Assembly: GCA_016189905.1 (NCBI GenBank)
Contig: JACPRP010000014.1
Location: forward strand, 27,302 to 91,301
Reading direction: 5' to 3'
Length of the DNA: 64,000 nucleotides
Source of the DNA: Chloroflexota bacterium
GTDB lineage: Bacteria > Chloroflexota > UBA6077 > FW602-bin22 > JACPRP01
The position numbers were made by a program, and so were the translations under genes. The notes beneath the pieces are model-generated. The model was not told where the DNA came from. It worked only from the letters and a program-made list of their open reading frames with translations, and did no database searches. Numbering within the stretch: the stretch's first letter is position 1; each line of letters opens with the position of its first letter. Shown piece by piece: positions 1,506 to 63,824 of this stretch.

Positions 1506-1534
1506 GCGCTTGACGATGCGATGGGAGCCCTGAG

Positions 1535-4152: not shown

Positions 4153-4156
4153 AAGC

Positions 4157-16582: not shown

Positions 16583-16601
16583 TCTTCTAGCAGCTTCACC
16601 G

Positions 16602-27217: not shown

Positions 27218-27991
27218 TCACTCCTTTCCCTTCCTCCTCTGTAAGGTCCGTCGGAAGCGATATGATTCGGTGCCAGTTTCGATGATGTGCGCCCGATCCG
27301 TGATGCGATCCAAGAGGGCTTTGCACAGCCGGGCATTCGGGATCACCTGGGTCCATTCCGAGAATGGCAGATTGGTCGTCAGGATTATGGCCGCCTTTTC
27401 GGACCGGTCAGCGATCACCTGAAAGAGTAACTCCGCCCCTACATCCGCGAGGGGTACATAGCCAACCTCGTCGATGGCGATGAGCTCGTACCGCTCCCAG
27501 CGGGCCAACACACGGCGCAACTGTGACTGTGCCTTGGCCTCAACCAACTCGTTGACCAAACCCGCCGCCGTGGTAAAGCGTACTCGCCGTTTCTGGCGGC
27601 AGGCCGCTACGCACAGCCCTGTCAACAGATGCGTCTTACCAGTGCCACACTCCCCGATGAATACCACTGGCTCGGCTCGTTCGATGTATCCTCCCTCGGC
27701 TAGTTCCCGTATCCTGGTTGCTGAGATCACCGACGCCTGGTGGAAATCAAACTCCTCTAGCGTCTTGATCTTCGGCAGATGCGCCTCCTGGATTCGCCGC
27801 ATAATCGTTTTCTGCTCCCGCTCGTCTAGCTCAGCCGTAAGCAACGCATCGAGATAATCAAGGTATCCCTGGTGCTCGCGCTCGGCCTGTTCCGCCAGCC
27901 GAGCGCACCCGCCACCAACCGTCGGCAGATGAAGCAGCTTGCAGTGTTGTTTGATGGCGTTTTCTTGCAGTGAAACTCGCCCCTCGCTCAT
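27218..27991 (-). CDS. istB: IS21-family helper ATPase IstB
   Basis: Walker [11 protein letters not shown], Walker [10 protein letters not shown], typical length of 257 aa. Overlaps the istA stop by 4 nt. Confidence 0.9.
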
Positions 27992-36217: not shown

Positions 36218-36428
36218 CGCGCCGGAAAGAGTGGCAGACCCTCTGCCCGTTTCATGCCAACGCTCTGGACTTTTGCCCACGACCTACTTCTTTTCGTTCG
36301 AAACTTCGGTATTCGAGGTGGCATTAGGCCAGGATCTGATGCACAATCCTGGCAGCTTCACTCAGGTGGAAAGTCAGTGGGGCCAGATCAGCCCCAAAGA
36401 GATCTACGCTAGTGATGGAGGTTACGTA

Positions 36429-38959: not shown

Positions 38960-39115
38960 GGCCGATTACGCTATTTATAGCGTTTTGCGAAAAGATCGAG
39001 CTGTTGTCCCGGCTGTTTAGGGGTGACTGGCTGTGTAGGGGCGACTCGTAGTCGCCCTCAGCAAAGAATCGAGTGGTCAATATTCACGCAGACCGCTGTA
39101 GGAGGTGCGCGCATC

Positions 39116-40273
39116 ATGAACCCAAGAGGGATCATCGGTCTTTTCCTGGTGTTATCGTTCGTGACAGCAACGGCCTGCACGCCGGCAGCCCCAACGCCAA
39201 CCCCCACCGTGGCCAAACCGTCCACTCCACCCCCCGCCGCTGCCACGCCCGTTAAGCCAGCCGCATCGCCGCCCGCCGCGCCATCGCCGGCCGCTACGAA
39301 ACCAGCGGCTGCCGTGCCCCAACCAACCCCGGCGCCAGCTAACGTAAAGGTCGGCAGCCTTCAGGTGGTCTCCGATGCCGGCGTTTTGATCGCCCTCGAA
39401 AAAGGCTATTTCAAGGAGCAGGGGCTCAACGTCGAAGTGGAGAAATTCCTCCAGGTTCCGGACATGGTGCCACCGCTGGCGACCGCGCAGCTTGACGTCG
39501 CGATGGTCGCGATGAGTGTGGCCATGCTCGCCGCCGCCGACCGTGGCGCGGATGTGAAGATGGTGGCTGATAAAGGAACCACCCAGCCTGGGTTCGAGTT
39601 CGATTGGATTCTCCTGCGGAAGGACCTGGCCGATTCAGGACAGGTGAAAAAGCCTTCAGACCTGAAAGGTATGAAAGTGGCCATCCCTTCCCCCAAGAGT
39701 GTCGGAGAACAGACGATTCAGATGATGATCGAGGAGGGGGGCTTGACGATGAACGACGTCGAGGTAGTGATAGTCCCTCTAGCGGATCAGCCTGCCGCTT
39801 TCGCCAACAAGGCAATCGCGGCATCCTATGGCGTGGAGCCGAACGTCACCGCCGCCGTTGGAAGAGGATTCGCTGTCAAGTGGATTCCCAATAGCTACTA
39901 TTTCTCGGGGAAGCTAACGGCGGCCGCTCTTTATTACGGTCCCAATCTGATCAAGAACAAGGATGTGGGTCAGCGGTTTATGGTGGCTTATCTAAAGGGG
40001 ATTCGTGATTACAACAAGGCCTTCACCAGCGGTGAGGGACGAGACAACATCGTCGGCATACTCGCGAAATACACAACCGTGAAGGATGTCAAGCTCTACG
40101 ATGTAATGGAGATGCCCTACCTCGACCCCAACGGCGTTATCGACAGGAAGAGCATCGATGCCCAGTATAAGTGGTACGTTGATAAGGAAGTGTACAAGGG
40201 TAGCAAGACCTTCGACGACATCCTCGACACCTCCTTCGCCGAATACGCGGCTCAGAAACTAGGAAAGTGGTAG
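39116..40273 (+). CDS. ABC-type solute-binding lipoprotein, NMT1/SsuA-like (subfamily 2)
   Basis: ATG at 39116 follows GGAGGTG. Lipobox (VTATACTP) and a PT/A-rich linker. Paralog of 15377-16582 and 21935-23335. Confidence 0.8.
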   Translation: MNPRGIIGLFLVLSFVTATACTPAAPTPTPTVAKPSTPPPAAATPVKPAASPPAAPSPAATKPAAAVPQPTPAPANVKVGSLQVVSDAGVLIALEKGYFKEQGLNVEVEKFLQVPDMVPPLATAQLDVAMVAMSVAMLAAADRGADVKMVADKGTTQPGFEFDWILLRKDLADSGQVKKPSDLKGMKVAIPSPKSVGEQTIQMMIEEGGLTMNDVEVVIVPLADQPAAFANKAIAASYGVEPNVTAAVGRGFAVKWIPNSYYFSGKLTAAALYYGPNLIKNKDVGQRFMVAYLKGIRDYNKAFTSGEGRDNIVGILAKYTTVKDVKLYDVMEMPYLDPNGVIDRKSIDAQYKWYVDKEVYKGSKTFDDILDTSFAEYAAQKLGKW

Positions 40274-48883: not shown

Positions 48884-50605
48884 TTGGGGAGGCTCTCCTT
48901 GCGTCAACCTCAAAAAGATCTCGACGAATCGATCGACAGGTTTCTGGACGGGTTTTTCGGCTGGTTTGGCAGAAACCTGCGCGTTCTCCTGTTTATTCTC
49001 TGCAGCGCAGCGGTCTTCTGGCTGTTCTTGTGGCCCTCCTGGGATAACTGGCTGCCTTACGTTGGCTACGGAGCGATGTTCCTTTTCCAACTGGCATTTG
49101 CGGTCCTCTTCATGATCGTTCAATTCGTCGCGCTCTTCTGGTTCCTCGCGCGAGGACGTGTCTACTGGGTTCTCCCTGGCGAAACCGGCGTCGGGTTTGC
49201 CGATTACAAGGGCAACCCAGAGGTGTTGGAGGCGGCGCGGCGCATCGTCGTGCTGCTGAGAGGCGTTCGCGAATTCAAAGAGATGGGTGGCGAGGTGATC
49301 AGAGGATTGCTCCTGGTAGGTCCTCCCGGGACCGGCAAGAGCTACCTGGCCCAGTGCATCAGCACCGAGGCCGGGGTGCCTTTCGGTTATGCCAGCGCTC
49401 CCAGCTTCCAGAATATGTTCTTTGGGATCTCCAACCTTCGCATTATGATGCTTTATGGTAAGGCCCGTGGCCTGGCGCGGAAGTATGGGGCCTGTATCCT
49501 TTTCATCGACGAAATCGACGCGATCGGCGGATCACGCTCGGCCCAGGGGCCATCCACGGGAATAGGCGGAATGCTTATGGGTGGCAATACAGGCATGCTC
49601 AATGAGCTTCTTCTACAAATGGACCCGCCACCTCAGGAGCAGGGCCGAATCCGACGGCTCTTGCGCCGTCTCGGTCTGCGGCGGGGCAAGGCCGTGATGC
49701 ACCCGGTGCTGACCATCGGTGCCACCAACATGACGGATGTTCTCGACGCGGCCCTCCTCCGCCCCGGACGCTTCGATAGAAAGATCACCGTCGATCTCCC
49801 CGACGCAGACGGCCGCAAGGAAATCCTGGAGTATTATCTGGCCAGGGTACGACACGAGGCACTACCCATGGCCAAAATGGTATCGGATACCATCGGCTAC
49901 TCGCCAGTGGCGATAAAGTACGTCATCAACGAGGCTGTGGTTCACGCCCACTTCGCCGGTCGCGGTTCCATAACCTACGACGACTTCACTCAGGCTCGCG
50001 AGGCTCACGAGTGGGGCCTCCGACAGCCCATAAAAAGCATGTCTCTCGAAGAACGGCGGCGCATCGCCTATCATGAGGCGGGGCATTGTTTCGCTCAATT
50101 GAAGCTTCTGCCCCGCGAGCGCATGGCTAAAGTTACCATCATCCGGCACGGCCAGGCGCTCGGCTTATCCGCCACCAAGCCACTAGAGGAGATGTACACG
50201 CGGAGCCGAGAGGAGCTTCTCGCGGACATTCAATGTTGCCTGGCCAGCCGGGCCGCCGAGGAGATATTCCTTGGCACCGCCCTCACCGGCGTCACACAGG
50301 ACCTCGAGCAGGCGACGCGCGCCGCCGGGGCCTGCATCGCGTGGTTTGGCATGAACGGCGAGCTCTACTCCGCCCGAGCCTTTAATGAGACCGTGCCAGA
50401 TGCTCACACCAAGAGGCAGATCAGCAAGGTGCTCCGCGAGGAATACCAGAAGGTCAAAGCTCTGGTCGAAGCAAACCGCGAAACAGTGGTGGCCATTGCC
50501 GAAGGACTATTGCAGAAGAACGAGTTGGACGAGGAAGAAATAGAGCTTATCGTGGCTGGAGTAGAGCTGGGGGTGAGTGACCGTGAAATTGTTCAGATTT
50601 CCTAG
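48884..50605 (+). CDS. Divergent FtsH-like membrane AAA+ / M41 zinc metalloprotease
   Basis: Two N-terminal TM helices separated by only a few residues. Walker A GPPGTGKS, Walker B ILFIDEIDAIG, SRH TIGATNMTDVLDAALLRPGRFDR, zinc site YHEAGHCF. TTG start is uncertain. Confidence 0.8.
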   Translation: MGRLSLRQPQKDLDESIDRFLDGFFGWFGRNLRVLLFILCSAAVFWLFLWPSWDNWLPYVGYGAMFLFQLAFAVLFMIVQFVALFWFLARGRVYWVLPGETGVGFADYKGNPEVLEAARRIVVLLRGVREFKEMGGEVIRGLLLVGPPGTGKSYLAQCISTEAGVPFGYASAPSFQNMFFGISNLRIMMLYGKARGLARKYGACILFIDEIDAIGGSRSAQGPSTGIGGMLMGGNTGMLNELLLQMDPPPQEQGRIRRLLRRLGLRRGKAVMHPVLTIGATNMTDVLDAALLRPGRFDRKITVDLPDADGRKEILEYYLARVRHEALPMAKMVSDTIGYSPVAIKYVINEAVVHAHFAGRGSITYDDFTQAREAHEWGLRQPIKSMSLEERRRIAYHEAGHCFAQLKLLPRERMAKVTIIRHGQALGLSATKPLEEMYTRSREELLADIQCCLASRAAEEIFLGTALTGVTQDLEQATRAAGACIAWFGMNGELYSARAFNETVPDAHTKRQISKVLREEYQKVKALVEANRETVVAIAEGLLQKNELDEEEIELIVAGVELGVSDREIVQIS

Positions 50606-51182
50606 GCGTGCGCTTCGCTTCGCCATAAGAACCCTCATCCTTCACCGGTGGAGCACGCTCGCTATCATCATCCTCCTGGCCGCGCTGGTTTTCACCAACG
50701 TCTGGCGTCTGAACGCCCCGGCTTACGTTGCGGACACAGGACTCGAACCCAGGGCAGCCGATATCTCTGGGGCGCGCGAGCTTTCTGTCGTCGGTCTAGG
50801 ACAAGACCGTGAAGCGGGCAGGAATATCATGGTGCTCAAAGACAGGTCCTCCGACCGCTATCTGGCCGTCTGGATTCGTCAAGCCGAGGCCTTTTCTATC
50901 GCCACACAACTCGAGACGACGCTAACCCCGCGCCCGATGACACACGACCTTCTGAAGTCGGCCATCAGCGTCCTTGGCGGGAAAGTCATCAGGATAATGG
51001 TGACCGACTTCAGTGACGATACTTACTACGCTCGGGTCGTGCTGGAGACCGCGGATTCGACCCAGATAGAGCTCGACGCTCGCCCCAGCGACGCGGTTGC
51101 CCTGGCCATGCGTGCTGGGGCACCCATCTACGCGACCGAAACCCTTCTCAATATGAAGGGCATCAAGTACGCCGAGGAATAG
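50577..51182 (+). CDS. Bifunctional nuclease (BFN/DUF151) family protein with an N-terminal transmembrane anchor
   Basis: RNIMVLKDRSSDRYLAVWIRQAEAFSIA…PRPMTHDLL…ARPSDAVALAMRAGAPIY are the canonical BFN blocks. N-terminal helix WSTLAIIILLAALVFTNVW. Overlaps the FtsH-like gene by about 25 nt. Confidence 0.75.
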   Translation: MTVKLFRFPRRALRFAIRTLILHRWSTLAIIILLAALVFTNVWRLNAPAYVADTGLEPRAADISGARELSVVGLGQDREAGRNIMVLKDRSSDRYLAVWIRQAEAFSIATQLETTLTPRPMTHDLLKSAISVLGGKVIRIMVTDFSDDTYYARVVLETADSTQIELDARPSDAVALAMRAGAPIYATETLLNMKGIKYAEE

Positions 51183-51335
51183 TTACTGTCGATCGTCTAT
51201 CTCTGGACTCTCTGCCGCCCCAAACTCATGTTGGCAGAACGGGCAGATCAGCTTCACCTGCTTAGACTTCAGCCCATAGTCGCAATAAAACCTGTCGCTG
51301 CACTTCGGGCATTTCACCCAGAAGATCTTTTCCAT
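51183..51335 (-). CDS. Unannotated 50-aa zinc-ribbon protein (not in the supplied ORF track, below its size cut-off)
   Basis: My translation: MEKIFWVKCPKCSDRFYCDYGLKSKQVKLICPFCQHEFGAAESPEIDDRQ*. Two CPxC knuckles. GGAAAGGA lies 6 nt upstream. It sits 44 nt downstream of the UbiD-family gene on the same strand. Confidence 0.5.
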   Translation of the reverse strand: MEKIFWVKCPKCSDRFYCDYGLKSKQVKLICPFCQHEFGAAESPEIDDRQ

Positions 51336-51378
51336 CCCGTATCCTTTCCATACTCACTTAGTTCGACAAGGTCCAAAG

Positions 51379-52761
51379 CTAGTTTATCCATTCCTCCAGC
51401 TTGATCCTCTCCATCGCCGCGTCAGGCACCTTTATCACCGACGGGAAAGCGATATCGTGGGGCCGAGTAGCGTCGACGATCACCTTGCTGTGTCCCATGG
51501 CCGTGATGAAAGAACACGAAACGTTCTCGATATAAGATATGTCTCGCTTGGGATTGGTCGCCGTCACGACGGCCCAGACGACATCCCGCTCGTTGAACAC
51601 GTCGACGTCGTCGTCGACTATGACAACCCATTGGAACTGCCTGGCCGAAGTCAGGACCTCCAGCGCGACCGCCTTGGCCTCACCTTCATGCCTCTTGTCG
51701 ATCGAGACGTAGCAAGAGAAGCGACCGCAGCCTGAATCCGGCAGGTGCACCGCCTTGACGTTGGGGTATTTCCTCTGGAGTGCGTTGTAGATGCTGCCCT
51801 CTTTCGGGATGCCTCCCAGGCTCCAGTGCCCTTGATGGCCTGAGAAGATATCCTGCATCTTTGCCCCGCGACGGTGCGTGACCGCGGTGACGTCGGTTAT
51901 CGGGCTCAGACACTGCGCCTGATAGTGCCGTGTCACCTCGCCAAATGGGTTCGCGATCTCGCGTACGCCGGGTGGCATTACCCCCTCGATGATCAGCTCG
52001 GCGTCGGCCGGCACCATGAACTTGTCGCCCCAGGTTTCGGAAGGCGTCAGACGGAGCGGCTCGCCCAGATATGCCCCAATAGCATCGTAATCATTTGTTC
52101 CCCATGGCGCCAGCGCCAGGGTGCCAAGATAGAAACCCGGATGATGGCCCAGGACGTTGATTATCGGCACCGGCTCGCCGCGCTTCTCATACTTGGCGAA
52201 GATGCGATCGATGTGCGGGGAATGTCTTACCGTCCCCAGCTTGCGCGGGCCTTTATACACCGATTTTACGAATGAAACGTCGTAGAACCCTTCATCAGGG
52301 TCCCGCATCACAACGGCCATTGTGATATAAGGGCCGAGGTCCATTTCGTAGTGACGGACCATGGGCAGTTTCCGCAAGTCAACCTGATCGTCCACCTCGA
52401 CGATCTCCTTAACGGGAGCATCGCTTTTGGCGATATTCTCGGCCGTCATTCGTAGCTTCTCTCGCCGCGCGAACTCTATCGAGAGGGGCATCTTACTCTG
52501 GTCGCGCGGCAGGTCTAGAATGGTGGCGCAACGCTCTCGCGTTCCGAACACGTTCGAGACGAGCGAGTACTCGGACTCCTCACCGAGCAGGTTCTTGGCC
52601 GACTTGAAATGCACGAGAGGGAAGCGATTGGCTTTGTCGAGATGCTCCAGGATAGCCGTCGCATCGTAGTTATCAGGGTTGATTGTTCGCTTGATCTCGA
52701 GTACGTCGTCCGGAAATAGCTCTTTCAGTTGACTGATGAAGTCGCCGAGATTCTTGGCCAT
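51379..52761 (-). CDS. UbiD-family decarboxylase, divergent paralog 2
   Basis: Overall UbiD architecture (…DLGPYITMAVV…, …VPADAELIIEG…). The usual EGPFGE.TGY block reads ANPFGEVTRHY. ATG follows GAGGAGG. Confidence 0.8.
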   Translation of the reverse strand: MAKNLGDFISQLKELFPDDVLEIKRTINPDNYDATAILEHLDKANRFPLVHFKSAKNLLGEESEYSLVSNVFGTRERCATILDLPRDQSKMPLSIEFARREKLRMTAENIAKSDAPVKEIVEVDDQVDLRKLPMVRHYEMDLGPYITMAVVMRDPDEGFYDVSFVKSVYKGPRKLGTVRHSPHIDRIFAKYEKRGEPVPIINVLGHHPGFYLGTLALAPWGTNDYDAIGAYLGEPLRLTPSETWGDKFMVPADAELIIEGVMPPGVREIANPFGEVTRHYQAQCLSPITDVTAVTHRRGAKMQDIFSGHQGHWSLGGIPKEGSIYNALQRKYPNVKAVHLPDSGCGRFSCYVSIDKRHEGEAKAVALEVLTSARQFQWVVIVDDDVDVFNERDVVWAVVTATNPKRDISYIENVSCSFITAMGHSKVIVDATRPHDIAFPSVIKVPDAAMERIKLEEWIN

Positions 52762-52826
52762 TTAAGGCTTCGGTTACCTCCTCGAACAAAATTTGCCCCG
52801 TGGGGGACAACTCGGTGCCATATGCG

Positions 52827-52914: not shown

Positions 52915-53898
52915 CTATGCCAGACCTGCCACTTTGGTAAGGGCATCTTTCACCAGCACCCTGACCAGCCGCTTTCGATAAGCCGGCGAAACCTCCATGT
53001 CGGACACCGGCTTCGCCTGCTTGAAGGCCGCCTCGGCCGCCTCGGCTATCGTCTCCTGGCTGACCTTTTTGCCCAACAGCGCGTTCTCGCTATCCTTGGC
53101 CACGAATGGGGCGGAGCCAACCCCCGTGACGGCGATGGCTGCTTTGCTGCATACCCCGTTCTCCTCACCCAGAGCGGCGGCAACTCCGACGATCGGGAAA
53201 TCGATGGCCTCGCGCCGGCGGAACTTCAAGTAGGTGCTCCGCTGTCCGTTGGCCGCTACGGGTACGATCACCTCGGCGATCAGCTCGCCGGGGTTCAATA
53301 TCGTCGGTTTCTTTCCGTCGTCGACGAACAATTCCTCCAGGCCAATGGTACGCTCTCCACTCGCGCTGACCAACCGCACCCTCGCGCCGAGCGCTAGCAA
53401 TGCGGGCGCCGTGTCGCCGCTGTACAGGGCATAGCAGCGCTTGCTGGCTTTGGCCATGTAGCAGATCGAGCCTCCTGCTTTGAGGCAGGCCTCGCGTCCC
53501 TGTCTCCAGGTGTACGTCTGATTGTAATACCAGCAGCGGGTCTCCAGGCAGATGTTGCCGCCAATCGTTCCCATATTCTGCAACTGCGTCGCGCCAACCG
53601 CGGCCGCGGCCTCCGCCAGGGCCGGCGCCTGCTCACGAACCGCCGCGGACTTCTGCACGTCCGATAGTGCCACCAGAGCGCCTATGCGTAGTTCAGCTCC
53701 GTCGCTCTTGATCTCGGCAATTCCGTCGATGCGCTTGATGTCGACGACAAACTGCGGCTCGACGAGTCTTTGCTTCATGCGCACCAGAATGTCGGTGCCC
53801 CCTGCGATGATCCTGGCCTTGTCTCCGTGCTCGGCGAGAATGGCGCACGCCTCGACAAGGCTCTTGGGTTCCAGATGCTCAAACTTGGTAAGTCTCAT
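52915..53898 (-). CDS. Xanthine-dehydrogenase-family Mo-hydroxylase 1, FAD-binding medium subunit (CoxM/XdhB-like)
   Basis: FEHLEPKSL.EA…IIAGGTDILVRMK and …TIGGNIC…. Its start overlaps the stop of the large subunit gene. Confidence 0.85.
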   Translation of the reverse strand: MRLTKFEHLEPKSLVEACAILAEHGDKARIIAGGTDILVRMKQRLVEPQFVVDIKRIDGIAEIKSDGAELRIGALVALSDVQKSAAVREQAPALAEAAAAVGATQLQNMGTIGGNICLETRCWYYNQTYTWRQGREACLKAGGSICYMAKASKRCYALYSGDTAPALLALGARVRLVSASGERTIGLEELFVDDGKKPTILNPGELIAEVIVPVAANGQRSTYLKFRRREAIDFPIVGVAAALGEENGVCSKAAIAVTGVGSAPFVAKDSENALLGKKVSQETIAEAAEAAFKQAKPVSDMEVSPAYRKRLVRVLVKDALTKVAGLA

Positions 53899-56249
53899 TA
53901 GCGCACCTCCGACAGGACTCTGTCCTTCGCCTTCTGCTCATCCAGGGCCTTCAATACCTTCTCTGGAGTAATGGGAAGATCAGTCATCCACACCCCAATC
54001 GCGTTATGAATTGCGTTTACAATGGCCGGGATCGTCGACACCTGAGTTCCCTCACCCGATTCTTTAGCGCCAAATGCGCCAACCGGATCGAGTGTCTCAA
54101 TCGAATAAGAGATCATCTCCGGCATATCGCCAACGGTAGGCATCGCGTAGCTGGTGAAGTTACTGCTCAAGGTCTGACCGTCGTCCTCCACGCAGTGCTC
54201 ATAAATGGTATGGCCTACGCCCCCGCCAATTGATCCCTCGTGCTGTCCTTCAACCGCAAGCGGATTTAGCGCAAAACCGCAGTCGTGCGCCACGACCATC
54301 CTCGTGACGTTCACCTTGCCGGTCTCGGTGTCCACCTCTACCCACGCTGCCTGGGTGCCAAAGGTGTACGAGCCCGCGAGGTTACCGATGCCCTTCTCGA
54401 AATCGACCGGGTCGATCTCCTGGCCCCAGCTTCCCGACCCGATAACCGTCGTGCCCGCCCCGTGAGCCACCGTCAGACGTGCCAGGTCGCGGAAGCGCAT
54501 CGACTTGTCTGGAGCGCCCTTGACGAACACCTTTCGATCCCGCAGCTCGATGTCCTCAGGCTTGGCTTCGAGAAGCTCGGCCGCCACAGCCACAAGTTGG
54601 CGTCGCGCGTCCTCCGCAGCTATCCTCACGGCGTTGCCGGCGGTCGAGCTCACCCGACTGCCGAAGCTGCCCGGATCTACCGGAGTCACCGTGCTGTCGG
54701 TCTGAGGAACCACCACATCCTCGATCCTGGTCCCCAGCACCTCGGCCACGATCATAGCAAGCACGGTCTCGGATCCCTGCCCGCTGTCGGTAGACCCGGT
54801 CATAAGGGATACCGTTCCATCTTCGTGGACCTTGATCACCGCCGAACAGCAGTTGTGCCCGCGCAGACGAACCCCTGAGCAAAAAGAGTTGCAGGCGATT
54901 CCCACACCTTTGGCGATGCGCCCAGTGGGCTCCTCGGCCTTCTCAGGCCAGGAGCGAAACTCCTTCTCCCAATCGACCGCCTTCAGAGCCTCGTCGATGC
55001 TCTCCTGCAGCCCGCAGCTTGTGACCTTCATTCCGTTCGGCGTGGTGTAGCCCGTGTAGGCTGAGTTCCTTCGACGAATCTCCACCGGATCGATTCCCAG
55101 GTCCTCGGCGATCATATCGATCTGCACATCGGCCGCGTAGCGGATCTGCTGGATTCCGTTGCCTCTTTGAGCCACAGACACTGGCCGGTTTGTGTAGACC
55201 CGCTTGCCATCGAATCTCACGTTGGGAACAACGTAGGGGAGATTCATAAAATAGAAAGCGTTCGCGATCGTCGTGGGGCCAATCGCCGTTCCAGCCCCGC
55301 CGTCCGCGATTATGCGGCATTCGCAGGCGAGTAGCGTCCCGTCCTTCTTGACCCCGGTCTTCAGCCAGACGATCATGGGGTGCCGTCTCCGCTGCGCCGT
55401 GAGCACCTCTTCCTGAGTCAGTGTCAGTTTAACTGGCCTGCCGGTTTTCTTCGAGAGCATCACCGCAGCGAAATCGAGCGCATACGAGCCGTTCTTCCCC
55501 CCATAGCCCCCGCCAATGTATGGCTGAACCACTCGAACGTTGCTAAGAGGCACGTCGAAGCAGTTCGCCAGATTACGATACAGGAAGTAAGGGCTTTGTT
55601 TTGAAGCCCAAACCGTGATGCGGTTCGGTGGCTCCCAGCTCGCGACAAGCGAGTTTGGCTCCATAAAGCCGTGCAAGACCGACTGGCTGTAGAAACGGTC
55701 CTCGCGAACGTAATCGGCATCCTTGAAAGCCGCGTCGACATCGCCGAACTCGGTATGCATATGAATGCTGATATTTCCCGGCTTGTCCGCGTGAATCTGC
55801 GGCGCTCCCTCGCGAAGCGCTGCCTCGGGATCGGTGACAGCCGGCAGAACCTCATACTCCACCTTTATTAGCTCGACAGCTTCCTGAGCGATATCCTCGT
55901 CGATAGCGGCAACCGCGGCGACTTCCTCGCCCACAAAGCGGGCCTTGTCCAGCGCCATCGGATACTCGTCCCTTGTATCCGGCCGCAGACCATATCTGAA
56001 CTTCCCAAAATCGGCACCCACCACGATTCCACGCACGCCAGGCAGCCTCTCGGCTTCGCTCGTATCTATGCTGAGAATCTTAGCGTGAGCATGTGGACTG
56101 CGCTTCAACTTTGCGTATAGCATTCCCGGCAGGACCAGATCATCGGCATAATTAGCTTTGCCGGTGGCCTTTACCGGCCCGTCTACCCTGGGCAACCGTT
56201 GGCCCAGAACTGAGTACTGTGGCACCCTGAATTCCCCCTCTCCTAGCAC
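53898..56249 (-). CDS. Xanthine-dehydrogenase-family Mo-hydroxylase 1, molybdopterin-binding large subunit
   Basis: 783 aa. GKANYADD…, VQPYIGGGYGGKNGS, …RGNG…, …GSFGSRV…, …FGAKESGEG…. Confidence 0.9.
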   Translation of the reverse strand: MLGEGEFRVPQYSVLGQRLPRVDGPVKATGKANYADDLVLPGMLYAKLKRSPHAHAKILSIDTSEAERLPGVRGIVVGADFGKFRYGLRPDTRDEYPMALDKARFVGEEVAAVAAIDEDIAQEAVELIKVEYEVLPAVTDPEAALREGAPQIHADKPGNISIHMHTEFGDVDAAFKDADYVREDRFYSQSVLHGFMEPNSLVASWEPPNRITVWASKQSPYFLYRNLANCFDVPLSNVRVVQPYIGGGYGGKNGSYALDFAAVMLSKKTGRPVKLTLTQEEVLTAQRRRHPMIVWLKTGVKKDGTLLACECRIIADGGAGTAIGPTTIANAFYFMNLPYVVPNVRFDGKRVYTNRPVSVAQRGNGIQQIRYAADVQIDMIAEDLGIDPVEIRRRNSAYTGYTTPNGMKVTSCGLQESIDEALKAVDWEKEFRSWPEKAEEPTGRIAKGVGIACNSFCSGVRLRGHNCCSAVIKVHEDGTVSLMTGSTDSGQGSETVLAMIVAEVLGTRIEDVVVPQTDSTVTPVDPGSFGSRVSSTAGNAVRIAAEDARRQLVAVAAELLEAKPEDIELRDRKVFVKGAPDKSMRFRDLARLTVAHGAGTTVIGSGSWGQEIDPVDFEKGIGNLAGSYTFGTQAAWVEVDTETGKVNVTRMVVAHDCGFALNPLAVEGQHEGSIGGGVGHTIYEHCVEDDGQTLSSNFTSYAMPTVGDMPEMISYSIETLDPVGAFGAKESGEGTQVSTIPAIVNAIHNAIGVWMTDLPITPEKVLKALDEQKAKDRVLSEVR

Positions 56250-56318
56250 GTGCTCGCCACTCTTGGGCCTAAGCTTTAGCGAAAGGCTTCGAGTACGGCC
56301 CGTCGATCGATATTGTCC

Positions 56319-56786
56319 TTAGTTTGCTTGCTCTCCGGCCGCTTCGATCGCGTCGAGTATCTTCACGTATCCTGTGCAGCGGCACAGATTGCCCCCGATG
56401 GCCTTTTTCACCTCTTCCCTGCTCGGCTTAGGATTCTCGTCCAGCAGCGCCTTCGCAGAAAGCACGAGACCAGGAGTGCAGTAGCCGCATTGGATTGCCC
56501 CTTTGTCGAGAAACGCCTGCTGTATTGGGTGTAGTCTGTCGCCGGTCGCCATGCCCTCGATCGTTTCGATGTTCTTGCCCTGGGCCTCTACTGCCAGCGT
56601 CAAACAAGACAATACTGCCCTGCCGTCGATGATAACCGTGCACGCGCCGCAATCGCCCGAGTCGCAGGCCTTCTTCGTTCCAGTGTAACCCAGGGTCTCG
56701 CGCAGCACCTCCAGCAACGTCCTCTGAGGCTCCACCACCACTTCGTGCACTACGCCATTGACATTCAGTTCGATGATACGCTTCAC
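56319..56786 (-). CDS. Xanthine-dehydrogenase-family Mo-hydroxylase 1, [2Fe-2S] small subunit
   Basis: CDSGDCGACTVIIDG (plant-type cluster) and CGYCTPG…CRCTGY (second cluster). Confidence 0.9.
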   Translation of the reverse strand: MKRIIELNVNGVVHEVVVEPQRTLLEVLRETLGYTGTKKACDSGDCGACTVIIDGRAVLSCLTLAVEAQGKNIETIEGMATGDRLHPIQQAFLDKGAIQCGYCTPGLVLSAKALLDENPKPSREEVKKAIGGNLCRCTGYVKILDAIEAAGEQAN

Positions 56787-57226: not shown

Positions 57227-59542
57227 TTACTTCTGCGCCTTCTCTTTCGCCTTCTCTTTCAGGGCTTTGACTATCTTCTCCGGCGTTGCCGGCTGTTCTT
57301 TGATCCACACGCCCGCAGCATCGTGAATGGCGCAAATTACGGCCGGAGGCGTGCTCACGTGACTGGCCTCGCTGGCCTCCTTTGCTCCGTAGGGACCATC
57401 TGGATCATTCGTCTCGACGTCGATGAGCTTCATTTCCGGAATGTCGACAGAATGTGGCATCTTGTAGTCGACGAAGGTGGGATTCAGCGTCCTACCCTTA
57501 TCCATTATGAAGTCCTCGTATATCGCCTGTCCGAGTCCCTGAATGGCGCCCCCTTCGATCTGCCCTTCCGCTAGCAACGGATTCAGCATACGGCCGCAGT
57601 CGGATGCAATGGTGAAGCTCTGGGTGGTTAGCTGACCTGTCTCCAGGTCAACGCCCACCCTGGCAGTCTGTGCCGTGAAGCTGTAAGATACGCCAGCGTT
57701 ACCATAGCCTGATTCCATTCCTAATGGTTCCAGGCCATAGGTAGAGTAGCCAGTGCCCATGATAACCGCGCCCGTACCCGAATAGCAGGCGACCCTGGCC
57801 ATGCGATCGAATGGCATCTGCTTGTCTGGATCGGACGCGACGAATACCATACCGTCGCGAATGTCCACATCCTCGGGCTTGACTTTCCAGGTCTGCGCCG
57901 CCACTTCGACCAGTTGCTTCTTGACTTCCTGCGCAGCCTTCTGCACTGCCTGCCCGCCAAGCACCGTAACACGGCTCCCGTAGCTGCCCGGGTCTGCCGG
58001 AGTGTAGCTGGTGTCCACTTTCTGTGAGATCACGGCCGACACAGGAATGCCAAGCTCTTCAGCCGCGATCATCGCCAGCACCGTGTCAGATCCCTGCCCA
58101 CAGTCGGTGGCTCCGGTGATGAGGTTCACCGTGCCGTCCTCGCAGAGCCTGATGATCGCCGCGCATGCCTGGTGGCCCATCTGCCTGGCGCCGGTGAGAT
58201 ATGGGGCTCCAGAAACACCAACCCCCCAGGAAATATTCCCCTCTTTCTTGGGCAGCTCATTGCGCTCGTGCCAGTATGGCTCGGCTACCTGTCGGAAAGC
58301 CTCTTTCATCCCACAGGTCTTGAGCGTTACCCCGTTGATCGTCGTATACGTGGTGCCCGGCGCCGGGTTATCGATGGAATTCTTCATTCTGATCTCGAGC
58401 CGATCCATTCCCAGCTCGTCAGCGATCATATCCATCTGGCATTCCGCCGCAAAGCGGGTGTGCGTGACGCCGTGGCCTCTCATCGCCGCTCCCATCGGAT
58501 TGTTGGTGAAGACGCGGTAGCCGTCATACTTGAAGTTGTCCAGTTTGTACGGTAACGTCGTGCCAAAGCCAGCGAGGTACAGGCTGAGAGGCCCAACCGC
58601 GGTGTAGCCGCCGCCATCGGCGATAACCTTATGCTGTATCGCGGTTATGATGCCGTCTCGCGTAGCCCCCATCTTGCTGTAAGTGATCATATTGTGCCGT
58701 CTACGGCTGGTGGTAAGCTCCTCTTCCATCGACTCGACGTACTTCACCGGCTTGCCGGTCATCTTCGAGAGAAGCACGGCGCAGAAGTCGCCGGCCAGCG
58801 AATCGTTCTTGGTCCCCCCGAACCCGCCACCGATGTATGGCTGAATCACTCTTACTCGGCTCAACGGCAGCTTGAAGCACGCCGCCAGGTGCCTGTAGTG
58901 GAAATACGGGCTCTGCTTCGCCGCGCGGACTGTGATGTATCCCGAGGGATCATAATAGGCCAGCGTGGCCGGGGGCTCGATGTAGCCCTTGGTCGCACGG
59001 GACGTCGCGAACCTGTCTTCGCGGACGATGTAGGCATCGGCAAAAGCCTTCTCCACATCGCCAAAGTTCCAGTGATATTGCACGCTGATGTTGTTCTCCG
59101 CGTAATCGTGTACCGCGGGAGCCCCGTCCTTCATAGCTTCCTCGGGGTCGAAGACCCCAGGCAACTCCTCATACTCCACGTCGACGAGGTCGCAGGCCTC
59201 CTCGGCAGTGTCTTCGTCGATAGCGGCGATGCCGGCCACCGCTTCGGCCCAGTAGCGAACCTTATCCACCGCCACCGGAGGCTCATCTCTTGTCGCGGGC
59301 ATCCAGCCCCAGGTCCATCCGCCAAAGTCTTTGCCCGTGACGACGGCTTTTACCCCAGGGAGGCGCAGCGCCCGACTGGCATCGATATTCACGATGCGTG
59401 CGTGAGCATAAGGACTTCGCACCAGCTTGCACCAGAGCATGCCCGGAAGAGAGAAGTCGGCGGCGTAGCCGGCCTTGCCGGTGACCTTTTCCACGCCATC
59501 GACACGGGGTACTGATTTGCCAATTAAAGAGAACTCCGCCAT
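57227..59542 (-). CDS. Xanthine-dehydrogenase-family Mo-hydroxylase 2, molybdopterin-binding large subunit
   Basis: 771 aa. GKAGYAADF…, IQPYIGGGFGGTKND, …RGHG…, …GSYGSRV…, …YGAKEASEA…. Confidence 0.9.
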   Translation of the reverse strand: MAEFSLIGKSVPRVDGVEKVTGKAGYAADFSLPGMLWCKLVRSPYAHARIVNIDASRALRLPGVKAVVTGKDFGGWTWGWMPATRDEPPVAVDKVRYWAEAVAGIAAIDEDTAEEACDLVDVEYEELPGVFDPEEAMKDGAPAVHDYAENNISVQYHWNFGDVEKAFADAYIVREDRFATSRATKGYIEPPATLAYYDPSGYITVRAAKQSPYFHYRHLAACFKLPLSRVRVIQPYIGGGFGGTKNDSLAGDFCAVLLSKMTGKPVKYVESMEEELTTSRRRHNMITYSKMGATRDGIITAIQHKVIADGGGYTAVGPLSLYLAGFGTTLPYKLDNFKYDGYRVFTNNPMGAAMRGHGVTHTRFAAECQMDMIADELGMDRLEIRMKNSIDNPAPGTTYTTINGVTLKTCGMKEAFRQVAEPYWHERNELPKKEGNISWGVGVSGAPYLTGARQMGHQACAAIIRLCEDGTVNLITGATDCGQGSDTVLAMIAAEELGIPVSAVISQKVDTSYTPADPGSYGSRVTVLGGQAVQKAAQEVKKQLVEVAAQTWKVKPEDVDIRDGMVFVASDPDKQMPFDRMARVACYSGTGAVIMGTGYSTYGLEPLGMESGYGNAGVSYSFTAQTARVGVDLETGQLTTQSFTIASDCGRMLNPLLAEGQIEGGAIQGLGQAIYEDFIMDKGRTLNPTFVDYKMPHSVDIPEMKLIDVETNDPDGPYGAKEASEASHVSTPPAVICAIHDAAGVWIKEQPATPEKIVKALKEKAKEKAQK

Positions 59543-59544
59543 CG

Positions 59545-60036
59545 TTATGCGCCTCCCCTTCCGTCACTCGATGCAGCCATCGCGACTTTAGCAGCTCTGA
59601 TTGAATCGAATATCTTGGCGTAACCCGTGCACCGACACAGGTTACCAGATATTCCTTTCTTTATCTCGTCGTCAGTCGGATTCGGATTGTCGTCAAGCAT
59701 CACTTTGGTCGACATGATCATGCCTGGAGTGCAGAAACCGCACTGGAAGCCACCATTATCTATGAACGACTGCTGAATCGGATGAAGCCTCTCTGCCTGA
59801 GCCAGTCCTTCGATGGTGGTTATGCGCTTGCCGTTCGCCTCGGCGGCCAGCACGAGACAGGAGTTGACCGTCTTGCCATCCATAAGCACGCTGCACGCGC
59901 CACACTCGCCGAGACCGCAGCCTTCCTTGGTGCCGGTCATCTGCAGTTCTTCCCTGATAACTTCCAGGAGCGTCCGCCACGGCGCTACTTCTACCTCGTG
60001 CTGCACGCCGTTTATCTCGAGCTTGATACTCTTCAT
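59545..60036 (-). CDS. Xanthine-dehydrogenase-family Mo-hydroxylase 2, [2Fe-2S] small subunit
   Basis: Internal ATG (MKSIKLEINGVQHEV…) chosen at 60036. CGLGECGACSVLMDG and CGFCTPG…CRCTGY. Confidence 0.9.
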   Translation of the reverse strand: MKSIKLEINGVQHEVEVAPWRTLLEVIREELQMTGTKEGCGLGECGACSVLMDGKTVNSCLVLAAEANGKRITTIEGLAQAERLHPIQQSFIDNGGFQCGFCTPGMIMSTKVMLDDNPNPTDDEIKKGISGNLCRCTGYAKIFDSIRAAKVAMAASSDGRGGA

Positions 60037-60041
60037 CCTTA

Positions 60042-60956
60042 CTATGCCCCCTTTCCGAAGCCTTGAGCGGAAGCAGCTTCGTCCGACAGCAACTCTCTTA
60101 TGGCCCTTCTCGTCAAGACCCTGACCATATCGCGGCGATACTCGGCCGAGGCCCGATGATCGCTGATCGGTCGACATCCTTCCGCCGCCGCCTCCGCGAC
60201 CTGATCGATCAGCTCGTCGGAAAACTTGTTGCCCTTTAATATGCTTTCGGCCTGCGCGACCCTGATCGGCGTCGGGCTTACCGCTCCGAGAGCGATGCGC
60301 AAATCTTTGCAGATTCCGTTCTCTGGCGTAACCATCACGGCCACACCCACAACCGCCAGGTCCATCGCCCGTCGTGGCGTCAGCTTGATGTATTTGCCAC
60401 GGGAATTCGCTGGGGGATTCGGAATCTCGATGCCTGTGACGATTTCATCTGCGCTCAGAACTGTCTTGGTGGGACCGGTAAAAAAGTCTTGAATCGCCAC
60501 CGTCCTGGAACCCTTCTCGCTGACCACCGACACCTTCGCGTCGAGGGTCAGGAGGGACGGAGCCATATCGGCGGAGGGGACAGCGTTGCAGATGTTTCCA
60601 ACCACCGTCCCACGGTTTCTCACCTGTGGAGAAGCCATGCTCTCGGCCGCCTGAGCCAGCATAGGGAATGTCTCAAGGACAACATCCGAGCGCTCCACCG
60701 CGCGCACAGTTGCCAGAGGCCCTAGCTTCAGCCCGGCGCCATCATAACTGATGTAGTCCAGCCCGGATATCCCCTTCAGATCTACGATGTAATCGATGCC
60801 CTTCATCGCCCTTCTCTTCAGCTTGGGCACCACATCGCTTCCACCAGCAATCACCTTGGCGCTTCCCTGATAACGGGATAACAAGGCCAGCGCCTCCTCG
60901 ATTGACTGCGGAGCAAGATAATCGAACTTGGGTAGTCGCCTGTAGAATGTTACCAT
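60042..60956 (-). CDS. Xanthine-dehydrogenase-family Mo-hydroxylase 2, FAD-binding medium subunit
   Basis: FDYLAPQSIEEA…VIAGGSDVVPKLK and …TVVGNIC…. Confidence 0.85.
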   Translation of the reverse strand: MVTFYRRLPKFDYLAPQSIEEALALLSRYQGSAKVIAGGSDVVPKLKRRAMKGIDYIVDLKGISGLDYISYDGAGLKLGPLATVRAVERSDVVLETFPMLAQAAESMASPQVRNRGTVVGNICNAVPSADMAPSLLTLDAKVSVVSEKGSRTVAIQDFFTGPTKTVLSADEIVTGIEIPNPPANSRGKYIKLTPRRAMDLAVVGVAVMVTPENGICKDLRIALGAVSPTPIRVAQAESILKGNKFSDELIDQVAEAAAEGCRPISDHRASAEYRRDMVRVLTRRAIRELLSDEAASAQGFGKGA

Positions 60957-61010
60957 TCACACACTCCTCGTCTCGGATTTCTCGGGTTCCAAACGGTCAT
61001 CCGCCCTCAC

Positions 61011-61286
61011 TTATCCTCCTCCAAACGGAGTTATCTCCGCCATCACCATTACCTGGTCGCCATCATTAATCTTTGCGTCAAGGAGGTAGGTTTCTTTGCC
61101 ATTGATAATCACTGTGTGAACGTCTTCACCCAGTTTGTCGCCCCTCATAAGTTCCATGCTGCGGCACAGCTCCCCGATCTTGGAAAATAGATCTCTAACA
61201 GTGGCACTTTCCCCCGGGAGCTCTACCCGCGCTGGGGTGACAAACCTTCCGCACATTGTGATGTTCGAGTCTACTGTAATAACCAT
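61011..61286 (-). CDS. MoaD/ThiS-family ubiquitin-like beta-grasp protein ending in GGG
   Basis: 91 aa. C-terminus …NDGDQVMVMAEITPFGGG* matches the D.V.…P.GG signature of sulfur-carrier/Ubl proteins. It is the first gene of the Mo-hydroxylase 2 transcription unit. Confidence 0.6.
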   Translation of the reverse strand: MVITVDSNITMCGRFVTPARVELPGESATVRDLFSKIGELCRSMELMRGDKLGEDVHTVIINGKETYLLDAKINDGDQVMVMAEITPFGGG

Positions 61287-61393
61287 TAACCCTGCCCCAA
61301 ATACATCGTTGTAATTGCCTGTAGTCGATTCGCTGCAAGTTGTCTCAATTGCCCGCCCGGCACCTCCACCCTCCTTAGACGTAAGTCCCCGAC

Positions 61394-61422
61394 ATTCTAC
61401 ACCAAGTCCAATCGATATGCAA
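61394..61422 (-). promoter_or_regulatory. Putative promoter: TTGCAT - 17 nt - TAGAAT (minus strand)
   Basis: Read directly, about 105 nt upstream of the MoaD-like start. Confidence 0.5.
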
Positions 61423-61487
61423 GATTGTCTGCGCGCGCAACGCGCAGAAAAACATTCGAATGGTTGGCTACCAGACGATGAGAAACC

Positions 61488-61517
61488 GGGCTGACAAGAG
61501 CGCGCTTTTGTCAGCCC
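61488..61517 (-). terminator. Hairpin terminator (GGGCTGACAA / TTGTCAGCCC) abutting the stop codon
   Basis: A 10-bp perfect stem begins immediately after the TAA of the hydrolase gene. On the minus strand it is followed by GGTTTCTCAT. Confidence 0.5.
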
Positions 61518-62234
61518 TTATTCTTGCCCGCTCACGTACTCGATCGCCTCGGCAAGCGTGATAACCGTCGCGTATTTCGCGTTCATCTCGTACAGGCTCA
61601 CGAGGTGTGACATCTCCGCCCGGTCGAAGACGCCTTCTTCGACCACGAACGTGTGGAAACCATGGGAACAGGCATCTACCGCCGTTGCCCGGACGCACCC
61701 AGAAGTTACACACCCCGTCAACAGCACCGTGTCCACACCTTGCTGTCGCAGGTATATGGCGAGGGGCGTGGAAAAGAAGGCTGATGCGCGGGATTTCTCG
61801 AGCACCCATTCACCCGGTAGCGGCGCTATCAAATCGGGAATCTCCTGTCCCCGCCTTTGCATCTCTGAGTTCCACGCGTCTTCGTCCTGGACATCAGGCT
61901 GGGGACCAAGCCTCGCTGCACCGCCGAGAAACCTCTTCGTCGCCAGGTTGCCTCGCGTATACACCACGGGTCTCTGTTTCTCCCGGCACACACTCAACAG
62001 ATTCTTTATGTTCGGCAGCGCGGCCCACCCTACATCGCCGCAACTGGTCGCGAACTCTTCAACCGATTGCAGCACATCCGCCGGTTTTTGGCCGATGAAG
62101 CCGTATGTCACGTCGATAACCAGGAGCGCTGGATTTTGACCGAAAGCCTGACGTTTTCCATGGCCGCCTTTTTCGTAGATCGCTCGCTCTCGCTCTGGCA
62201 AAACATTGCGCCAGCTCGTCATTTGTCCCTCCAT
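61518..62234 (-). CDS. Isochorismatase-family cysteine hydrolase (nicotinamidase / maleamate amidohydrolase / N-carbamoylsarcosine amidase-like)
   Basis: ALLVIDVTYGF (Asp) and LLTGCVTSGCVRATAVDA (nucleophilic Cys). Its ATG abuts the stop of the upstream UbiD-family gene. Confidence 0.85.
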   Translation of the reverse strand: MEGQMTSWRNVLPERERAIYEKGGHGKRQAFGQNPALLVIDVTYGFIGQKPADVLQSVEEFATSCGDVGWAALPNIKNLLSVCREKQRPVVYTRGNLATKRFLGGAARLGPQPDVQDEDAWNSEMQRRGQEIPDLIAPLPGEWVLEKSRASAFFSTPLAIYLRQQGVDTVLLTGCVTSGCVRATAVDACSHGFHTFVVEEGVFDRAEMSHLVSLYEMNAKYATVITLAEAIEYVSGQE

Positions 62235-63824
62235 CTAAACCCTGATTCGATTCTGCGCTAGCTTCTCGCCGGTTATGTAATGCTCACCTCTAAGGGCCAG
62301 CTCTGCCTCTTCGGCGATCTCATCCGGCCAGTAACCAAGCGATGCCCCGTACCATGGCATCTTCGGGTTTAGCTCGGGCAATCCTTCCTCCTCCCAAATC
62401 TGCCTGGCTTTCTCCATGAACTCCTTCCTCGGCAGAGATGTCGGCGGATAATCCCATTTCCTCGTGGCGTCGATCAGCAGCGAAGTTGTGCGTGGGTCCT
62501 CGAGAGCAGTCTGCTTGTCCTCGGGAGGCACGGCAGATGGGTCCAAAGAGGCGGTCTTGCCCTTGGCGATATGAATGTCTCGATGCGGTTGCATCCGGTA
62601 GCACAGCGCCCACATAACCGAATCCATATCTCGCGGATCGATGTCGTCGTCGACGGCGATCAAAACCTTCGCGTAGCGGGTGCTGGCGGCGCAGATCCCG
62701 TACAGGGCCTGCCAGACCTGTGGCGTTGTGGCGTTCTTCAACGCTATGACGCACAGGATGCGCCCGCCGCTCTCCAGATGATAGCCTACGTCGACCACGC
62801 TGTCGATGCCGAGATCGTATTTTAGCAGGTGATAGTCGGTTGCCTCTTTGCCCATCTGGGTCATCAAGCTGCTTTCGCTCGGCGGGAACTGGCTGATGTA
62901 CGCGTTCCAGATTGGCTGCTTGCGATGGGTGATGCATTTCACGTTCACGCACAGGTTGGGCCCACGCAAGCCCATATAGCCCGTGAACTCGCCGAACGGA
63001 CCTTCGCGTTCCAGATAATCGGTGGCAATCTCACCCTCCACGACGATTTCAGCCGTGGCCGGAACTTCCAGATCGACCGTCTTGCATTTCACCAGTTGCA
63101 CGGGCTCGCCCGCGATGCCGCCGGCGACGGCAAGCTCGTCCACGCCATACGGAACCTTGGTCACCGCCACCAGACCCACGTTCGGCGTGGGCCCAATGGC
63201 CACCGCCACCGGCATCGGAATGCCCAGCCGCTTGTACTTCGCCCAGTGCATCCGAATGTGCTGCGGCATCGGCGCGTCTACCCCGGTCCGCGTGGGACTC
63301 TTCACCATCGTGCGATGATTGCCCACGTTCCTTACGCCTGTTTCAGGGTCTCTGGAGATCCAGTTTCCCGCGGAGAAATACGGCGCGTTGTCGAACCCCG
63401 GCGTCGATATCGGAATCGCGAATTCCCCCAGCCCCCCGTGCTCTAGCAAGGTCGCGCCCACGTGCACCTCTTCCTGACATGGTCCAGAGTCGACCACGAC
63501 GGGCTCGATCCGATTCACCTGCGCCCGCTGCCACTTCTTCGCGAGAGCATCGCGCGAAGGCTCGGTCGCCATAGCCAGGGCATATATGTCTCTCGATCCG
63601 GCGTGACAGGCGACGAGGACCTTGTTGTCATACTTCTTGCCCTTTACGTCGACCACGTTCTCGAACAGAAACGCCTTTCGGTCCTTATCGGGAAGTCCAC
63701 GGAACTGCCAGCGAACCAGAGGCATCAACTCGGTATCCTTGTTGATCTCCCTCTTGATTCTTACCAGCTTGCCTCTTTCTTCCAGCACCTCGATGTATTC
63801 TCTGATATCCTTATAGTAGGCCAT
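62235..63824 (-). CDS. UbiD-family decarboxylase, paralog 3
   Basis: MAYYKDIREYIEVLEERGKLVRIKREI…, NVGNHRTM, AVAIGPTP, ELAVAGGIAGEPVQLVKCKTVDLEVPATAEIVVEG, REGPFGEFTGYMG. Confidence 0.85.
   Translation of the reverse strand: MAYYKDIREYIEVLEERGKLVRIKREINKDTELMPLVRWQFRGLPDKDRKAFLFENVVDVKGKKYDNKVLVACHAGSRDIYALAMATEPSRDALAKKWQRAQVNRIEPVVVDSGPCQEEVHVGATLLEHGGLGEFAIPISTPGFDNAPYFSAGNWISRDPETGVRNVGNHRTMVKSPTRTGVDAPMPQHIRMHWAKYKRLGIPMPVAVAIGPTPNVGLVAVTKVPYGVDELAVAGGIAGEPVQLVKCKTVDLEVPATAEIVVEGEIATDYLEREGPFGEFTGYMGLRGPNLCVNVKCITHRKQPIWNAYISQFPPSESSLMTQMGKEATDYHLLKYDLGIDSVVDVGYHLESGGRILCVIALKNATTPQVWQALYGICAASTRYAKVLIAVDDDIDPRDMDSVMWALCYRMQPHRDIHIAKGKTASLDPSAVPPEDKQTALEDPRTTSLLIDATRKWDYPPTSLPRKEFMEKARQIWEEEGLPELNPKMPWYGASLGYWPDEIAEEAELALRGEHYITGEKLAQNRIRV

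Follow-up and report, generated by a model that had tools for sequence, protein, structure and literature searches.

A conserved gene pair encoding an HmfF-related UbiD-family protein and a putative zinc-ribbon partner in a Chloroflexota bacterium

Here, we describe two adjacent genes in a 64,000-nucleotide stretch of a Chloroflexota bacterium (GenBank assembly GCA_016189905.1, contig JACPRP010000014.1, positions 27,302 to 91,301; hereafter the window), one for a UbiD-family protein (UbiD-2) and one, the mini-ORF (ORF, open reading frame), for a 50-residue predicted zinc-ribbon protein (the mini-protein). The two probably make up a conserved two-gene module for a heteromeric, reversible (hetero)aromatic acid decarboxylase that depends on prenylated flavin mononucleotide (prFMN) and is related to HmfF. 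Judged by gene context and residue conservation, the mini-protein is very likely an accessory partner of UbiD-2, most likely as a small subunit of this enzyme group that has not been described before; a literature search found no paper describing the pair.

51379 to 52761, minus strand: UbiD-2, 460 amino acids (aa), Pfam domains UbiD_N, UbiD and UbiD_C, HmfF-related clade.
51336 to 51378, minus strand: intergenic spacer of 43 nt between UbiD-2 and the mini-ORF, with an AAGGA Shine-Dalgarno sequence.
51183 to 51335, minus strand: mini-ORF, 50-aa zinc-ribbon protein, putative small subunit of UbiD-2, sequence MEKIFWVKCPKCSDRFYCDYGLKSKQVKLICPFCQHEFGAAESPEIDDRQ.

UbiD-2 belongs to the three-domain UbiD family, with all three Pfam domains past their cut-offs (E 2.5e-42, 1.2e-30 and 1.8e-08) and 40 UbiD chains matched in the PDB. 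Its best solved relative is PtHmfF (6h6v; E 5e-63, ~33% identity), followed by VdcC (7ae4; E 1e-35). Rereading the sequence bore out an initial annotation, made from the DNA alone, of a 50-aa ORF with two CPxC knuckles (CPKC, residues 9 to 12; CPFC, residues 31 to 34) and its own Shine-Dalgarno sequence (AAGGA, 51342 to 51346, 6 nt ahead of the ATG), lying downstream of UbiD-2 on the same strand. The close spacing it gave stands, with the figure corrected from 44 to 43 nt. The mini-ORF had been taken as unannotated; it carries no name, but a public gene record exists (NCBI hypothetical protein HYY30_02085), and an independent Logan gene call gives the identical 50-aa product.

Conservation of the pair was followed in a one-genome-per-species scan, which returned 336 UbiD-2 relatives; the best 80 loci (44 to 69% identity to UbiD-2) were kept. 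Judged by their record titles, they span about ten phylum-level groups (Chloroflexota, Actinomycetota, Bacillota, several former Deltaproteobacteria orders, Binatia, Alpha-, Beta- and Gammaproteobacteria, Verrucomicrobiia, the acidobacterial Sulfotelmatobacter and Velamenicoccus). With a mini-protein profile, 72 of the 80 proved to have a homolog. In 65 of these it comes right after the UbiD gene on the same strand, in 3 it comes right before it and in 4 (L006, L023, L058 and L064) it is 2 to 6 kb away, so that the two genes adjoin in 68 loci; the median gap between them is ~44 nt. Separation in L006 is due to an inserted block of genes. This insert of ~6 kb (L006:11185-17094; also L088 and L091), seen in one Chloroflexota lineage, encodes an AAA_21/AAA_15 ATPase, a glutathionylspermidine-synthase-like ATP-grasp protein and several ORFs without a family. 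For a reverse test, metagenome contigs were scanned with a peptide pattern drawn from a narrower mini-protein alignment alone; 15 loci were found, and a UbiD-2-like gene lay directly upstream in 12. Both searches answer the proposal in the initial annotation that such mini-ORFs be sought beside UbiD-2 orthologs, and on this comparative evidence the mini-ORF is a real, conserved gene and the predicted partner of the UbiD-2 clade.

Among 74 mini-protein sequences (73 orthologs and the window protein), four cysteines (C9, C12, C31 and C34) are invariant in 73 to 74. They are accompanied by conserved F5, L29, P32, F38 and E42 and by the tail ESPxIDERW, and the family follows the pattern M-x-R-I-F-W-x-x-C-P-x-C ... 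F ... L-R-H ... L-x-C-P-[YF]-C ... F ... E-S-P-x-I-D-E-R-W (n = 74). With its two CxxC knuckles, this is a predicted small zinc ribbon of the four-Cys kind. An AlphaFold2 model has four short strands at a predicted local distance difference test score of 75; a Foldseek search with it returned ribosomal zinc ribbons only, none significant, and Pfam and NCBIfam gave sub-threshold matches to generic zinc-ribbon models only (e.g., YnfU and Zn_ribbon_4). An exhaustive profile search of 1.84 billion representatives yielded 199 mini-protein clusters (50% identity) at E values up to 1e-3, and nearly all members are stand-alone proteins of 45 to 100 aa. Two copies of a similar zinc ribbon (FWTTCxxC...LRCPxCQ..F.GVESP) occur in the 280-aa protein P0216, which, by its sequence, may be a eukaryotic-type J-domain protein; the mini-protein's type of ribbon is thus also found outside UbiD partners.

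Two further UbiD genes in the window served as comparators for the UbiD-2 active site.

36231 to 37868, plus strand: UbiD-1, canonical UbiD, nearest to phenylphosphate carboxylase alpha (Pfam, NCBIfam, signature).
62235 to 63824, minus strand: UbiD-3, head of the gene run described below, canonical UbiD with signature N R H E E G E (Pfam, signature), 24% identity to UbiD-2.

The motif block reads LEEGPFGEWTGYY in UbiD-1, EREGPFGEFTGYM in UbiD-3 and EIANPFGEVTRHY in UbiD-2, which reproduces the initial readings; the deviation of UbiD-2 is broader than had been claimed. In the alignment, Fdc1 residues N168, R173, H191, E233, E277, G278 and E282 correspond to D, K, H, D, A, N and E in UbiD-2 (D161, K166, H183, D224, A270-N271 and E275); PtHmfF, UbiD-1 and UbiD-3 all share N R H E E G E there. 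Properly aligned, UbiD-2 is therefore still without the full canonical set, the outcome that the initial annotation had left to this check; from the Glu-Arg-Glu network (here A270, K166 and E275), the third residue alone is retained. At the positions of Fdc1 Asn168, His191 and Glu233, which we take to be the metal ligands, UbiD-2 has D161, H183 and D224, which are chemically similar and fixed in the clade.

The 119 closest homologs have, in Fdc1 order, D (107), K (119), H (118), D (119), V/A/C, D (104) or N (14) and E (117). Across the 80 loci, wherever Lys stands at the Arg173 position, residue 277 is hydrophobic and residue 278 is usually D or N; where Arg stands there, 277-278 is E-G or E-A. 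This covariation suggests a salt bridge that was shifted by one residue rather than one that vanished. The changes are fixed and co-vary in a clade linked to UbiX in relatives, and E275 is kept; the alignments therefore speak for an active site that is rewired across the clade, with no decay and with the catalytic acid retained as E275. Of the two outcomes first offered for the altered motif, changed chemistry or loss of acid/base residues, the loss of the catalytic acid does not hold, given that E275 corresponds to Fdc1 E282.

Sorted by these residues, the UbiD proteins of the loci fall into three sets.

Lys-class UbiD (n = 43), 44 to 100% identity to UbiD-2: adjacent mini-ORF in 35.
Sister class with canonical Arg and Glu277 and with Asp at the E233 position (n = 24), 45 to 48% identity: adjacent mini-ORF in 21.
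Other UbiD paralogs of the same loci (n = 27), 21 to 34% identity: none with a mini-ORF of its own.

By these counts the zinc ribbon is a marker of a UbiD clade broader than the altered-motif group. The first reading had tied it to a non-canonical UbiD, and this tie is undone by the sister class: the canonical Arg and Glu are in place there and the ribbon is present too, so it did not arise to make up for the altered motif. As a primary role of the mini-protein, the supply of missing catalytic residues was rejected on the same ground, as the same ribbon with the same tail accompanies canonical Arg/Glu enzymes. A betaproteobacterial mini-protein used as query found no homolog on 72,556 plasmids, which carry 102 HmfF-like UbiDs of 31 to 35% identity.

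Flavin prenyltransferase (UbiX) genes were sought in the window in two ways. Pfam scans found no Flavoprotein/UbiX domain in 50 non-overlapping ORFs of at least 150 aa, and in tblastn of the 64 kb with 11 UbiX queries (ten from related loci and one from Escherichia coli) no match fell below E 0.55. As a control, the E. coli sequence finds UbiX in 18 related loci at E 1e-50 to 1e-78, plus one fragment. The window thus has no recognizable UbiX, as first noted, yet this had been held noteworthy, and it is ordinary, because UbiX lies within 10 kb in only 19 of the 80 related loci (Lys-class loci included). In E. coli, ubiX and ubiD are also unlinked.

To the observed conservation of the pair, the residue signature and the UbiX linkage in relatives, we add by inference a physical complex, zinc binding and the use of prFMN, which could work as follows. 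The mini-protein would adopt a small beta zinc-ribbon fold and hold one zinc ion by C9, C12, C31 and C34. Like VdcD on VdcC, it would sit on the UbiD-2 oligomer in stoichiometric amounts and stabilize active-site loops, with its acidic tail (E42-S-P-x-I-D-E-R) running along the UbiD-2 surface. VdcD, on which activity depends, is a 68-aa zinc ribbon (C3, C6, C28 and C31) that decorates the VdcC hexamer and contacts the VdcC loops bearing the Glu-Arg-Glu motif (PMC8379154). In UbiD-2, E275 (Fdc1 E282) would serve as acid/base in catalysis, K166 would take the place of Arg173 in the ionic network and D or N at 271 that of the lost Glu277, D161, H183 and D224 would form the metal site, and prFMN would be supplied by a UbiX encoded elsewhere in the genome.

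Several points weigh against this two-gene module. Eight of the 80 loci have no mini-protein homolog (one of them is cut by a contig end), the genes around the pair differ widely among loci, and none of the 150 matches listed from the exhaustive profile search is a natural UbiD-mini-protein fusion. The R173K variant of Fdc1 has no activity and the E277Q variant hardly any; the enzyme needs an acid at 277 and 282 (PMC5818171). The window UbiD-2 is in the minority with N rather than D at 271, which leaves no acid at 277/278, and an enzyme with this K/A combination might be inactive or function otherwise. The mini-protein and VdcD align with an hhalign probability of 5%; VdcD is not matched in PDB searches with either the single mini-protein sequence or its profile, and the subunit D model is absent from the mini-protein's NCBIfam matches, although the VdcC (subunit C) model does match the UbiDs. 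With no detectable VdcD homology, the analogy depends on fold class and gene context.

The mini-protein could instead be a transient factor of maturation or assembly (loading of prFMN or metal, or assembly of the oligomer), with no stoichiometric place in the enzyme. Diverse small proteins associated with UbiD enzymes are known, LpdD acting as a prFMNH2 chaperone (PMC10865409), and PhdC is described as a prFMN maturase; tight linkage of the two genes fits such a factor as well as it fits a subunit. We consider this role unlikely for a 50-aa zinc ribbon that lacks an obvious flavin-binding pocket, given that VdcD, the only characterized zinc-ribbon partner of a UbiD, is an integral subunit and that the short, near-constant gene spacing favors 1:1 co-production.

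It is quite unlikely that UbiD-2 is a non-catalytic or regulatory scaffold working with a canonical UbiD such as UbiD-3, in the manner of phenylphosphate carboxylase alpha/beta, with the zinc ribbon in a larger complex. The loss of the Arg173 and Glu277 equivalents, seen against the inactive R173K variant of Fdc1 (PMC5818171), would suit a scaffold. So would the ~20 of 80 loci with at least one extra canonical UbiD within 10 kb, four of which (L015, L052, L055 and L056) have it directly after the mini gene, and the 99-aa PpcC-gamma-like protein (Phenyl_P_gamma, E 1.5e-7, L077:11238-11534) found in eight loci (L077, L047, L024, L007, L064, L051, L063 and L072). Loci of these kinds may encode multi-UbiD carboxylase complexes in some lineages. 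Against a scaffold, about 60 of the 80 loci have no second UbiD nearby, and there are Lys-class loci with UbiX and a transporter alone. Near-invariance of E275, H183, D224 and H312 is unexpected in a dead enzyme, and the co-varying replacements suggest a working network.

That the mini-ORF is a mere hitch-hiker unrelated to UbiD-2 function (e.g., a small regulator) is highly improbable, despite its generic sub-threshold family matches and the four loci where it lies apart from UbiD, for adjacency is kept in about ten phylum-level groups while all other neighbors change, the reverse search from the mini-protein returns to the UbiD-2 clade, and the separation in L006 comes from the inserted block.

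The conserved two-gene module, as the preferred reading, bears on the use of these enzymes. UbiD enzymes are wanted as reversible (de)carboxylation catalysts, many of them fail activation in heterologous hosts, and missing accessory proteins such as VdcD and LpdD are a known cause of such failure. A widespread small partner is now defined (~200 clusters at 50% identity, about ten phylum-level groups, an entire HmfF-related clade), and co-expression of the mini-protein is advisable when UbiD enzymes of this clade are expressed. With Lys for Arg and the first Glu gone, the clade puts to a natural test a Glu-Arg-Glu network that is supposed to be essential, and, in view of the impaired Fdc1 variants R173K and E277Q, it is a natural departure from the model enzyme; the altered residues are nonetheless under clear purifying selection in genes that are still linked to UbiX. 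In annotation, the gene context also allows a hypothetical protein of 50 aa to be named. More tentatively, the zinc-ribbon-linked clade, above all its Lys class, could be a mechanistically distinct UbiD branch, in which a Lys/Asp(Asn) network would replace Arg-Glu, activity would depend on the zinc ribbon, and the chemistry or substrate class (e.g., N-heteroaromatic carboxylates, with Mo enzymes resembling 4-hydroxybenzoyl-CoA reductase [4-HBCR; CoA, coenzyme A]) would be unlike that of characterized UbiDs.

Across the related loci, the pair is found beside TRAP-TAXI and TTT transporters, IclR regulators, CoA ligases and transferases, Amidohydro_2 proteins, Mo-hydroxylases (8 loci) and UbiX. 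These neighbors fit a presumed role in breaking down aromatic or heteroaromatic carboxylates, in which different pathways would have taken up the decarboxylase module. In the window, a long minus-strand gene run begins with UbiD-3 and ends with UbiD-2 and the mini-ORF; the features between them are listed below (FAD, flavin adenine dinucleotide; MoCo, molybdenum cofactor).

61518 to 62234, minus strand: isochorismatase-family hydrolase (Pfam).
60042 to 60956 (FAD subunit), 59545 to 60177 (2Fe-2S subunit) and 57227 to 59542 (MoCo subunit), minus strand: first Mo-hydroxylase set, ordinary three-subunit type (Pfam).
56319 to 56786 (2Fe-2S subunit), 53898 to 56249 (MoCo subunit) and 52915 to 53898 (FAD subunit), minus strand: second Mo-hydroxylase set, in HcrCAB order (Pfam).
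52793 to 52810, minus strand: hairpin resembling a terminator, with a T-run behind it, within the 153 nt that separate the FAD-subunit gene from UbiD-2 (weak call from a consensus scan only).

In the set beside UbiD-2, the Mo-binding subunit scores best with the NCBIfam model for 4-HBCR alpha (749 bits) and the FAD subunit with that for 4-HBCR beta (285 bits), neither score reaching the cut-off. For the 2Fe-2S subunit, glyceraldehyde dehydrogenase gamma is the top model and 4-HBCR gamma the third. The match of the 327-aa FAD subunit to 4-HBCR beta is full-length and takes in a Cys-rich insert (C..C..C..C..C, residues ~107 to 145). By these matches, the HcrCAB-order enzyme (52915 to 56786) may be a reductive dehydroxylase rather than a hydroxylase. 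The ordinary Mo-hydroxylase set with the isochorismatase (57227 to 62234) and a maleate-isomerase/arylmalonate-decarboxylase-like gene at 23362 to 24114 hint at catabolism of N-heteroaromatic acids. The hairpin may mark a transcription-unit boundary or an attenuator, and UbiD-2 and the mini-ORF perhaps form a separate or attenuated unit; a promoter scan called none, and Rfam found no family in the whole window.

Downstream, the mini-ORF stop abuts that of a convergent gene with a bifunctional-nuclease domain (50577 to 51182), with 0 nt between them (51182/51183) and therefore no space for separate terminators. Exact-sequence look-ups gave no record for UbiD-3 or the isochorismatase gene and only one 3.5-kb Logan contig for UbiD-2. 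Elsewhere in the window, five paralogous NMT1/THI5-like substrate-binding proteins are encoded within 25 kb (15377 to 17771, 21935 to 23335, 24111 to 25337 and 39023 to 40273), one of the genes coming after UbiD-1 and an Amidohydro_2 gene (37953 to 38888). The window also holds a minus-strand IS21-type element (27218 to 29565; an IstA-like transposase with rve and Mu-transposase C-terminal domains, then the IstB ATPase) and, at its start (6 to 4648, plus strand), Alternative complex III-like genes (molybdopterin subunit, 4Fe-4S subunit, NrfD, ActD and cytochrome c).

Among known systems, phenylphosphate carboxylase (PpcABCD) likewise combines UbiD-like proteins with small accessory subunits, and some related loci hold a second UbiD and the PpcC-gamma-like protein. 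It differs in that kinase and phosphatase partners are absent here and most related loci have a single UbiD, and the mini-protein matched neither Phenyl_P_gamma nor TIGR02725 (PpcC gamma) in Pfam and NCBIfam. LpdD and PhdC are alike in being small accessory proteins genetically associated with UbiD enzymes; both are described as acting on prFMN and neither as a zinc ribbon, whereas the mini-protein is a predicted four-Cys ribbon with no sign of a flavin site.

HmfF/HmfG (2,5-furandicarboxylate decarboxylase and its UbiX) shares with UbiD-2 the His associated with furan specificity (H296/297, the invariant H312 in UbiD-2) and an Arg (R331, R347 in UbiD-2), and many UbiD-2 orthologs are named 2,5-furandicarboxylate decarboxylase 1 by the Joint Genome Institute (JGI). 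HmfF differs in its canonical N/R/H/E/E/G/E signature, at an identity of ~33%, and has no known zinc-ribbon partner, nor do the plasmid-borne HmfF-like genes have one.

The initial annotation had suggested a D-like accessory subunit. Such a role fits the conserved partner gene in 72 of 80 loci, and no homology to VdcD/BsdD is detectable: PDB sequence and profile searches, hhalign and Foldseek were all negative. The PDB search had the power to show it, as ShdD (7ae4_a) is recovered with a BsdD query. A literature search for UbiD-associated zinc ribbons besides VdcD found none. The mini-protein is shorter than VdcD-type proteins (50 versus 68 to 75 aa) and has an acidic rather than a proline-rich tail; its UbiD partner is HmfF-like, not VdcC, and the window has no adjacent ubiX (B) gene. 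Both are four-Cys zinc ribbons with two CxxC knuckles (at a similar spacing, 21 residues in VdcD and 18 in the mini-protein), and both have an acidic residue 8 positions past the last Cys (VdcD E39, mini-protein E42). A salt bridge joins VdcD E39 to ShVdcC R133, and this Arg aligns with UbiD-2 R136, a position that is Arg in 52 of 67 mini-linked enzymes, most commonly K, M or I in other paralogs and T in HmfF; covariation of R136 with E42 was uninformative, both being conserved. The R136/E42 parallel is suggestive as a hypothesis and is not evidence of homology. As in the pair described here, VdcCD, ShdCD and BsdCD have the gene of a small protein (<10 kDa) right behind that of a UbiD-family catalytic subunit.

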